Virus record (IMG/VR): IMGVR_UViG_2681813227_000023 | Span: 1 to 22,725 of that record | Reading direction: 5' to 3' (one strand) | From: a virus | Lineage: Duplodnaviria > Heunggongvirae > Uroviricota > Caudoviricetes | DNA length: 22,725 nucleotides | Shown here: piece by piece, positions 6,898-7,856 of the stretch | How positions within the stretch are numbered: position 1 is the stretch's first letter | How the letters are laid out: every line of letters starts with the position of its first letter | The notes under the pieces: generated by a model | What the model was told of the DNA's origin: nothing | The model's input: the letters and a program-made list of their open reading frames with translations, nothing else | The model's database searches: none | Program-made: the position numbers and the translations under genes

Positions 6898-7251
6898 ATG
6901 AGAAAACAGATACAGGCTCTTGGTCGACTCAAAACAGGCCAGATGAACAAAACAGAATCTGCGTATTGCCAGCACCTTGAGCAGCGTAAACGTGCAGGGG
7001 AAATCGCCTGGTATCGATTCGAGGGTATCAAGTTGCGGTTAGCTGACAACTGCTTCCTGACTGTAGATTTTGCCGTGATGTTGGCTGACGGGCAGTTGGT
7101 GATGGTGGACGTTAAGGGAAGTAAGTCAGTCTTTACTGACGATGCGAGAGTCAAGATGAAGGTTGCGGCAGACAGCTATCCGTTTGTCTTTCAGGTTGCT
7201 TATCCAAAACCTAAAAAGCTCGGTGGTGGATGGGAGGTTGAGGAACTATGA
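6898..7251 (+). CDS. DUF1064-like phage protein (117 aa)
   Basis: Recalled resemblance to DUF1064 phage proteins (ESAYCQHLEQRKRAGEIAWYRFEGIKLRL...FLTVDFAVMLADGQLVMVDVKG). Stop overlaps the HNH gene start. Confidence 0.5.
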   Translation: MRKQIQALGRLKTGQMNKTESAYCQHLEQRKRAGEIAWYRFEGIKLRLADNCFLTVDFAVMLADGQLVMVDVKGSKSVFTDDARVKMKVAADSYPFVFQVAYPKPKKLGGGWEVEEL

Positions 7252-7856
7252 GCGAGAAGCCCAATGCTGCGGGATTGATTGTATCCGGTGATAAAAACCC
7301 GAATTGGAAGGGTGGGAAAATCGAAAAGGTTTGCTCCGTATGTGGCAGGCAATATCAGGTTAAGCGAGCCAACTCATCTTCAAGGTTCTGCTCACTTCAG
7401 TGTGTAGGAATTTCACAGCGAGGCAAGACGGTAAATCGGGAACTAAAGCGAGTATTAAAAATATGCTGCGTATGCGGATCTTCGTTCTCCGTTTTCTTGA
7501 GTCATGAGAAGCGTCATAAATGCTGCTCGAAACAGTGTTCCAACATAATGCGTTCTTCTCTGATGAAGGGGGAAGGAAATCCAAACTGGTCTGGTGGATT
7601 ATCGAGATTGCCGTATCCGTGGGATTTCCGAGAAACGAGCAAGAGGGTTATTGAGCGAGATGGTTTTACTTGTCAGAACCCAGGTTGTGATGGAACAGAC
7701 AAAAGGCTAACAACTCATCACATCAATTACGACAAGCAAGACTGTCGTCAGGAGAACCTTATTTGCCTTTGTTCGAGCTGTAACTCGAAGGCTAATTTCG
7801 GTCGGCATAAGTGGCAAAAGTTTTATGAATCACTGATGAAAAATAGATCGGCATGA
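7248..7856 (+). CDS. HNH endonuclease with repeated zinc-ribbon-like motifs (202 aa)
   Basis: C-terminal HNH signature ...TTHHINYDKQDCRQENLICLCSSCNSKANFGRH; repeated NPNW(K/S)GG and CxxC units. Region is visibly AT-richer than its flanks. Confidence 0.8.
   Translation: MSEKPNAAGLIVSGDKNPNWKGGKIEKVCSVCGRQYQVKRANSSSRFCSLQCVGISQRGKTVNRELKRVLKICCVCGSSFSVFLSHEKRHKCCSKQCSNIMRSSLMKGEGNPNWSGGLSRLPYPWDFRETSKRVIERDGFTCQNPGCDGTDKRLTTHHINYDKQDCRQENLICLCSSCNSKANFGRHKWQKFYESLMKNRSA

Follow-up and report, generated by a model that had tools for sequence, protein, structure and literature searches.

A candidate homing cassette of a zinc-finger HNH endonuclease gene and a DUF1064 3′ end in a Uetakevirus-like prophage of Escherichia coli

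Organization of the HNH locus

The window analysed here is a stretch of 22,725 nucleotides (nt; positions 1 to 22,725 of IMG/VR record IMGVR_UViG_2681813227_000023) and represents a phiV10/epsilon15-like (Uetakevirus) prophage of Escherichia coli. At 7248-7856 it carries an open reading frame (ORF) for an HNH endonuclease, directly behind a gene of the DUF1064 family. Comparison with related loci leads us to regard this ORF as probably encoding the site-specific endonuclease of a free-standing homing-endonuclease cassette seated at the DUF1064 3′ end. The two genes and the elements of the HNH protein (aa, amino acids) are arranged as follows:

6898-7251, + strand: DUF1064 gene, 117 aa, predicted PD-(D/E)XK nuclease, presumed host/target gene of the cassette
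7232-7243, + strand: Shine-Dalgarno-like GGGAGG / GAGG, read from the sequence within the final DUF1064 codons, 4-10 nt 5′ of the HNH ATG
7248-7856, + strand: HNH endonuclease ORF, 202 codons (202 aa), uninterrupted, under purifying selection
7296-7316, + strand: NPNWKGG, aa 17-23, ahead of zinc finger 1
7332-7403, + strand: zinc finger 1, FCS-type, C29-x2-C32 ... F47-C48-S49-x2-C52, presumed DNA-binding module
7464-7538, + strand: zinc finger 2, FCS-type, C73-x2-C76 ... C92-C93-S94-x2-C97
7578-7598, + strand: NPNWSGG, aa 111-117, after zinc finger 2
7671-7796, + strand: HNH (beta-beta-alpha-metal) nuclease core, C142-x4-C147, H157-H158, N170, C175-x2-C178, N179, N183

The protein thus combines two FCS-type zinc fingers with an HNH nuclease domain at its C-terminus. 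An earlier sequence-only reading of this DNA had pointed to repeated NPNW-GG / CxxC units, and these are real: two CxxC...(F/C)CSxxC units span aa 29-52 and 73-97, the NPNW-GG motifs lie at aa 17-23 and 111-117, and the two halves of the protein align to one another (internal repeat, E 6e-5 and 2e-4). In an alignment of 47 homologues, all eight Cys of both units are invariant, as are C142, C147, C175, C178, H158, N170, N179, and N183, while H157 is kept in at least 90%. PHROG 1271 (‘HNH endonuclease’) matches the ORF with an E value of 3.7e-23. Pfam HNH_3 reaches 18.0 bits, which is under its gathering cut-off of 24.8, and zf-HIT is likewise sub-threshold. The C-terminal 70 residues weakly match the HNH domains of IscB, ZorE, and McrA, and among PDB sequences the HfmIscB HNH domain matches the nuclease core (E 3.3e-5).

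An AlphaFold2 model of the 202-aa protein (mean pLDDT 88.9) contains two small zinc-ribbon-like domains and one beta-beta-alpha domain. In Foldseek searches, the small domains show weak matches to the FCS zinc finger 2w0t and to YacG. The last domain is most similar to EcoKMcrA (prob 0.97, E 0.027), then to Cap5 and Gme HNH, none of these at E <= 0.001; the multi-domain nature of the model keeps the TM-scores low. Between the window and ten non-E. coli relatives, nonsynonymous divergence (pN) of the HNH gene is 0.03-0.08 versus a synonymous divergence (pS) of 0.5-0.8, and therefore the protein is maintained. Judged by its catalytic and metal-binding residues, the ORF is confirmed as a genuine, intact member of the HNH (beta-beta-alpha-metal) superfamily.

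The upstream gene matches Pfam DUF1064 (E 1.1e-4) and PHROG 190 (‘Holliday junction resolvase’, E 2.9e-37). Its motif D57...D71-V-K73, i.e. D...(D/E)VK, is conserved, and its pN is 0.02 versus a pS of 0.2-0.7. A published prediction (PMC1189080) places DUF1064 among the PD-(D/E)XK nucleases, as a relative of T7 endonuclease I and TnsA; our search by sequence for solved-structure relatives of DUF1064 found none. The HNH ATG overlaps the DUF1064 TGA (ATGA at 7248-7251), and translational coupling of the two genes is therefore likely. A promoter and terminator scan of the + strand from 6700 to 8100 found none of the HNH gene's own, so that we read the gene as part of the early-right (replication) operon, which also contains a DnaT-like, a lambda-P-like, and the DUF1064 gene.

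Sporadic presence and sharp junctions among close relatives

The cultured phages phiV10 and PAS61 have no HNH ORF. The window is about 98-100% identical to both up to position 7050 (DUF1064 codon 51), about 57% identical over the remainder of DUF1064, and 100% identical from 7854. Alignment to relatives without the gene, which the sequence-only reading had proposed as a check, thus located the insertion junctions, and with them the following features:

7042-7050, no strand: left junction, the final stretch common to HNH-less alleles, with heterology from 7051 (aligned to phiV10, PAS61, and loci L054 and L055)
7051-7191, + strand: donor-type DUF1064 segment, codons 52-98, about 57% DNA identity to the phiV10-type allele
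7192-7247, + strand: replacement DUF1064 tail QVAYPKPKKLGGGWEVEEL, which travels with the HNH gene
7854-7856, no strand: right junction, where the HNH TGA coincides with the DUF1064 stop of HNH-less relatives; thereafter 100% identity to phiV10
7857-7917, + strand: AT-rich conserved intergenic region 5′ of the eae-like gene, GC 32.8%

HNH-positive and HNH-less alleles therefore differ over about 7051-7853, a block made up of the 3′ two-thirds of DUF1064 (codons 51-117) and the HNH gene. This block takes the place of about 190 bp. Accordingly, the window DUF1064 allele is a hybrid with phiV10-like codons 1-50 and foreign-type codons 51-117. We interpret 7051-7191 as a putative co-converted flank that would make the HNH-positive allele unlike its presumed target. 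Every HNH-positive E. coli locus switches at the identical left point. On the right, TGAATCGACGATCTTTTTAGTTATCAATGT follows DUF1064 in 63 of 71 HNH-less IMG/VR loci, its 30 nt being the same as those after the HNH stop of the window; 7857-7917 is the predicted right-hand homology for cassette exchange.

A survey of 5,426 complete E. coli genomes retrieved 530 that contain the DUF1064 5′ part. Its variant 3′ part occurs in 22 of them (about 4%), the same 22 that carry the HNH gene, and in none of the about 508 HNH-less genomes. Among the best 80 DUF1064 loci of IMG/VR, nine are HNH-positive (DUF1064 at least 90.6% identical) and 71 HNH-less (at most 76%), and 189 further IMG/VR DUF1064 loci include the HNH gene in two contigs only. 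Such sporadic presence among close genomes is a characteristic of homing genes. The outcome named by the sequence-only reading as speaking against a selfish insertion, ordinary composition and presence at this site in all relatives, is not what we observe, as about 96% of the E. coli relatives lack the gene. That reading's proposal of a probable selfish insertion is thereby upheld in the sporadic occurrence and clear junctions and has to be widened in one respect, since the mobile unit also includes the DUF1064 3′ part.

The block can be the sole difference between two prophages: HNH-positive L004 and HNH-less L055 are about 100% identical over 2.9 kb to its left and 1.2 kb to its right. Across the E. 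coli HNH-positive loci, the cassette differs by 0-4 single-nucleotide polymorphisms per about 800 nt, while the 70-150 nt directly left of it fall into at least four haplotypes, two of which match HNH-less phages or genomes exactly. Spread of an element by recombination would leave just this pattern, a near-invariant and apparently young block set in flanks that are old and diverse. Positions 7039/7041 were considered as proof of a crossover less than 10 bp from the heterology. This holds only for some haplotypes, and we dropped it because non-E. coli HNH-positive relatives have the phiV10 bases there.

The same distribution bears on a possible terminase-associated role, in which the protein would aid packaging cleavage as in HK97-like phages. 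Zinc-finger HNH relatives of about 30% identity do lie beside or within large terminase genes of Brucella, Gordonia, and Synechococcus phages, and zinc-ribbon HNH nickases adjoining cos or terminase are known (PMC3592412). However, the gene lies 3.4 kb and about seven genes upstream of the small terminase subunit gene (start 11232), and its linkage in the seven backbones described below is consistently to DUF1064 rather than to terminase. Moreover, phiV10, PAS61, and about 96% of the E. coli relatives have the same terminase but no HNH gene. The distance from the terminase, which the sequence-only reading had counted in favour of mobility, is thus confirmed, but the stronger argument comes from these same-terminase relatives. 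Because the gene is dispensable in them, a packaging role is effectively refuted, and we regard it as highly improbable.

Linkage to DUF1064 and insertion scars in other phages

In every gene context that could be read, HNH homologues of at least 54% identity directly follow a DUF1064 homologue; this covers seven backbones with unrelated flanks: enterobacterial Uetakevirus-like prophages (including Kluyvera), five unrelated metagenomic phage backbones, and a Janthinobacterium prophage. A Pectobacterium homologue is recorded by name, its gene context lying outside the backbones read. The linked DUF1064 homologues are 52-92% identical, and start and stop codons usually overlap. The comparison supports the mobile role that the sequence-only reading had assigned to a free-standing HNH gene, but in the backbones examined the gene is never free of DUF1064.

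The position of the insertion can be read from L021 and its HNH-less counterpart L246. The DUF1064 body of L021 (aa 1-96) is 84% identical to that of L246. In contrast, its last 19 residues are 58% identical to the window tail and 20% to the L246 tail. The L246-type tail IGVQSVKGAWKSEEF recurs as the last 16 residues of the L021 HNH protein, IGVRSVRKAWEYEAFS, a score reached by none of 5000 shuffles. A global DNA alignment of L021 to L246 and L247 failed right of the insertion, where the backbones are unrelated; the displaced tail is confirmed at the protein level. From this comparison, the inserted unit in L021 reads as about 19 DUF1064 tail codons, a stop, and the HNH gene, placed in frame after codon 98 (between window nt 7191 and 7192). 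By analogy with L021, the element proper would begin at 7192 in the window.

Displaced tails also occur elsewhere. In L024 the C-terminus of the HNH protein, KPKKLGGGWEVEAV, equals a DUF1064 tail; in L017 a 32-codon DUF1064 3′ remnant follows the HNH stop (hidden Markov model E 5.8e-9); and L052 contains a weaker trace. Taken together, the displaced tails of four lineages place the presumed original insertion after codon 98. One defined site within a conserved gene, as is characteristic of homing genes, is therefore seen here at the DUF1064 3′ end, in the seven backbones and in the L021/L246 pair.

Several of these loci have further peculiarities. The HNH copy of L052 (Janthinobacterium sp. 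MDT1-19; 3884-4459) is truncated at its N-terminus, so that the first zinc finger is missing, and has no DUF1064 upstream. Its end, ...KTEEF, resembles a DUF1064 tail, and the copy is probably decaying. In the metagenomic phage L013, an IS3-like insertion sequence (IS; HTH_Tnp_1 and rve transposase genes, 5653-6803) lies directly 3′ of the HNH gene. The related L138 is missing the HNH gene and the IS, about 1.9 kb in all, and retains a DUF1064 with an HNH-type C-terminal extension plus the first two HNH codons, followed by the deletion, a probable loss scar. L024 contains a type II hammerhead ribozyme match (46.4 bits, gathering 37) at 4976-5036 on the - strand, about 1 kb 3′ of its HNH gene.

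Homing versus exchange of an accessory gene pair

The constant linkage also raises the possibility that DUF1064 and HNH are a co-adapted nuclease pair, acting for example on replication or recombination intermediates, that forms an ordinary mosaic accessory module and is exchanged by general recombination at conserved sequences, with no self-promoted mobility. HNH homologues of at least 54% identity always have DUF1064 upstream, start and stop codons overlap, both genes are under purifying selection, and lineages with a more similar HNH protein also tend to have a more similar DUF1064 protein (Spearman 0.6-0.7). Further, mosaicism is in any case extensive in the early regions of such prophages.

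Against such a pair, DUF1064 stands alone in more than 95% of relatives, and the HNH-less alleles form no clade apart from the HNH-linked ones. In L021 the DUF1064 tail, not its body, travels with the HNH gene, and the displaced resident tails in four lineages indicate insertion into a pre-existing complete gene. The near-invariance of the cassette on diverse flanks points in the same direction. Additionally, DUF1064 has an in-frame stop at codon 35 in L011 (5651-6004) and a frameshift near codon 101 in L035 (3652-4001), in each case beside an intact HNH ORF. These lesions could be real inactivation or assembly errors, and a broken DUF1064 beside an intact HNH gene argues weakly against an obligatory partnership. 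On balance, we consider the accessory pair an unlikely explanation of the locus.

Several observations nevertheless weigh against homing. The case for it is comparative throughout. The co-variation of the two proteins and the likely translational coupling both fit a long-standing functional pair, and atypical composition is common to other early genes. The window lineage itself has no displaced tail, its codon-98 site being taken from other lineages, and its right junction falls within conserved intergenic sequence, where homology between donor and recipient on either side would be expected to place it. The left junction is the same in every E. coli copy, a pattern compatible with a single acquisition and subsequent ordinary recombination of the flanks. 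The perfect linkage of donor-type codons 51-98 to the HNH gene and the invariance of the cassette on at least four left haplotypes would fit homing or such a single acquisition, and for two left haplotypes positions 7039/7041 are uninformative.

Within the cassette, 7048-7347 (DUF1064 codons 51-116 and HNH codons 1-33) stands out by a low pS of 0.15-0.38 in seven of ten non-E. coli HNH-positive relatives, with flanks at 0.7-1.0; its DUF1064 part has a pS of at most 0.36 in these seven. In L009, L034, and L042, the DUF1064 part (codons 51-116) is synonymously saturated (about 0.7), in L034 across the HNH part too. Because of this saturated divergence we rejected a nucleotide-level functional element, and the segment looks more like a recent recombination patch.

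Proposed homing mechanism and a possible role in exclusion

Under the homing interpretation, an HNH-positive phage would meet an HNH-less relative by co-infection or as a resident prophage. The zinc fingers would give sequence recognition, and the HNH domain would nick or cut the HNH-less DUF1064 allele inside the stretch that is replaced or diverged in the HNH-positive allele, most likely near codons 86-100. The break would be repaired by recombination with the HNH-positive genome as template, whereby the HNH gene and flanking DUF1064 sequence would be copied in. Repair might involve the prophage's own recombination genes:

1542-3241, - strand: RecT / PD-(D/E)XK exonuclease pair

The low identity of its DUF1064 3′ part, only about 57% at the DNA level, would protect the HNH-positive allele. 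Since the substitute tail of the cassette would keep DUF1064 whole, insertion would cost the phage little.

Such cutting would at the same time put competing HNH-less relatives at a disadvantage, and the gene could chiefly be a weapon of competition or superinfection exclusion that cuts incoming or co-resident related phages, its spread being a by-product. It is encoded in the early region of a prophage, the target gene suggested by linkage is present in hundreds of competing E. coli prophages, and the protein partially matches the Zorya defence protein ZorE in the HNH domain of the latter. Interference of co-infecting phages with one another by means of endonucleases is documented (PMC11620839). 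However, exclusion alone leaves the precise in-frame insertion and the displaced tails unexplained, and it overlaps homing rather than excluding it. Further, the RefSeq annotation of the near-identical prophage L003 contains no Zor gene, and the PADLOC scan, which covered the HNH and DUF1064 proteins, matches aa 120-197 only, except for the weaker model PDLC00644 over aa 43-188. Membership in a known defence system (Zorya type II ZorE) is rejected, as the NCBIfam ZorE model reaches 27 bits against a cut-off of 600 and the match is confined to the HNH domain. Exclusion as the chief role of the gene thus appears distinctly improbable.

Homing at this locus may represent a distinct lifestyle of a homing gene in a protein-coding gene that needs neither intron nor intein. 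The cassette would insert in frame about 20 codons before the DUF1064 stop and bring its own tail and stop, followed by the HNH gene, while the displaced tail would decay or join the HNH C-terminus. As a further step, the resolvase-like host gene might have been chosen because it helps to resolve homing intermediates. We put this forward tentatively, at somewhat below even odds.

Comparison with known homing and nuclease systems

Free-standing HNH homing endonuclease genes are already known as a kind. Of interest here are the constant PD-(D/E)XK target gene, the in-frame insertion with a self-supplied tail, and a family that is invisible to Pfam. The closest parallel is provided by the free-standing HNH genes of T4-like phages (e.g. 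mobE, ‘intronless homing’). As described in two studies (PMC2790892, PMC2988022), these also adjoin a conserved phage gene, mobilise a flank, occur sporadically among close relatives, and break sequence identity sharply at the element. Unlike them, the present protein uses a pair of FCS-type zinc fingers as its presumed DNA-binding part, shares no sequence kinship with them detectable past the HNH motif, and resides in a temperate Uetakevirus-like prophage. The element also lies inside the 3′ end of its target ORF with a replacement tail rather than in an intergenic region, and homing is here read from sequence.

Zinc-finger-array homing endonucleases of ICP1 and other phages (T5orf172 / CapR-domain; Barth et al, 2023, PMC10448857) resemble the present family in having independently folded finger repeats ahead of the nuclease domain, a repeat number that varies among relatives (2 to about 13 in the present family), and a location at a boundary of genetic exchange. 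They differ in the nuclease, which is here HNH and not T5orf172/GIY-YIG-like, in the finger (here CxxC...FCSxxC), and in the target gene. HK97 gp74-type and zinc-ribbon HNH nickases (Xu & Gupta, 2013, PMC3592412) are likewise small phage HNH proteins with a [CxxC]2 zinc site and extra zinc modules, and our enzyme may well nick DNA rather than cut both strands. In contrast to the gp74 type, the present gene is linked to DUF1064, is not beside cos, terminase, or portal, and is missing from relatives that share the packaging genes. Intron- or intein-borne endonucleases such as I-HmuI and I-TevIII have in common with it one precise site inside a conserved coding sequence and the retention of host function. 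Here, however, there is no intron RNA (Rfam) and no intein, and the host gene stays whole through a duplicated 3′ end, not through splicing.

The locus adds a case of a homing-type nuclease that apparently spreads among temperate E. coli prophages, a setting in which elements of this type have received far less attention than in the lytic T4-like phages. Alleles with and without the cassette are available, including those of the cultured phages phiV10 and PAS61. The cassette explains the sharp mosaic boundary within the DUF1064 gene and illustrates how nuclease genes could create breakpoints of lambdoid and Uetakevirus mosaicism.

Composition and other origins considered

The sequence-only reading had described the HNH gene as AT-richer than its neighbours and called for an analysis of GC and codon usage. 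The gene is indeed low in GC, at 44.7% versus a window value of 49.7% (z = -2.0), and only one of the 32 genes is lower. The deficit is modest, with 5.9% of 609-nt windows equally low, and carries little evidential weight. GC at third codon positions is ordinary (46.3%, rank 8 of 32). At first codon positions it is 0.414, the lowest of 32 genes, and the deficit therefore reflects amino-acid content, with S, K, C, and N abundant in the protein. In its synonymous codon choice the gene is more atypical (z -5.7) than any other of the 32. The DnaT-like gene (5183-5998) and a 77-aa ORF (9127-9360) are nearly as atypical (z -5.0 and -4.2); the latter also has the lowest GC of all window genes, 41.9%. 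Composition was thus set aside as evidence of foreign origin: with ordinary third positions, an amino-acid-driven deficit, and odd codon usage elsewhere too, it lends weak support only.

An intron-encoded endonuclease was rejected, since Rfam at gathering thresholds finds no intron close to the HNH gene of the window, of L017, or of L024, and a complete DUF1064 ORF lies upstream. The sole Rfam match of the window at these thresholds is a tRNA (14047-14120, - strand, 73 bits) between the large terminase and portal genes, annotated as tRNA-Arg in L003. An insertion sequence or transposon was rejected as well: the window has no flanking inverted or direct repeats beyond chance-level short matches, and no transposase domain.

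A large family of zinc-finger HNH proteins with missing annotation

The NPNW-GG/CxxC repeat is the unit of a large family, with 570 clusters at E <= 1e-30 and 14,196 at E <= 1e-10, whose members place 2 to about 13 FCS-type fingers before one HNH domain. A search of a large protein database returned 138 homologues of the HNH protein (50-100% identity), nearly all without a precomputed Pfam match; the family has essentially no Pfam coverage. Among GenBank phages, no homologue exceeds about 32% identity, and the best matches, about 30% identical, come from haloarchaeal, Brucella, and Gordonia phages.

The gene is also missed in genome annotation. In both RefSeq E. coli loci inspected, L003 (9149-9757) and L004 (3149-3757), the ORF is intact and 100% identical, yet no coding sequence is annotated. 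The conserved ORF falls in an un-annotated stretch of about 660 nt that separates the DUF1064 gene from the eae-like gene. Likewise, all 22 HNH-positive E. coli genomes show only two features beneath the 901-nt match.

Enzymes of this modular zinc-finger HNH type, whether nickases or cutters, might prove useful in practice if they have long recognition sites. Among distant relatives, the loci L045, L046, L048, and L053 and the proteins P0122, P0129, and P0181 have tandem arrays in which 3 to about 13 FCS-type fingers (CxxCG...RFCSxxC, often with NPNWKGG ahead) precede a lone HNH domain; the Selenomonadaceae genome bin L053 contains several such arrays inside 4 kb.

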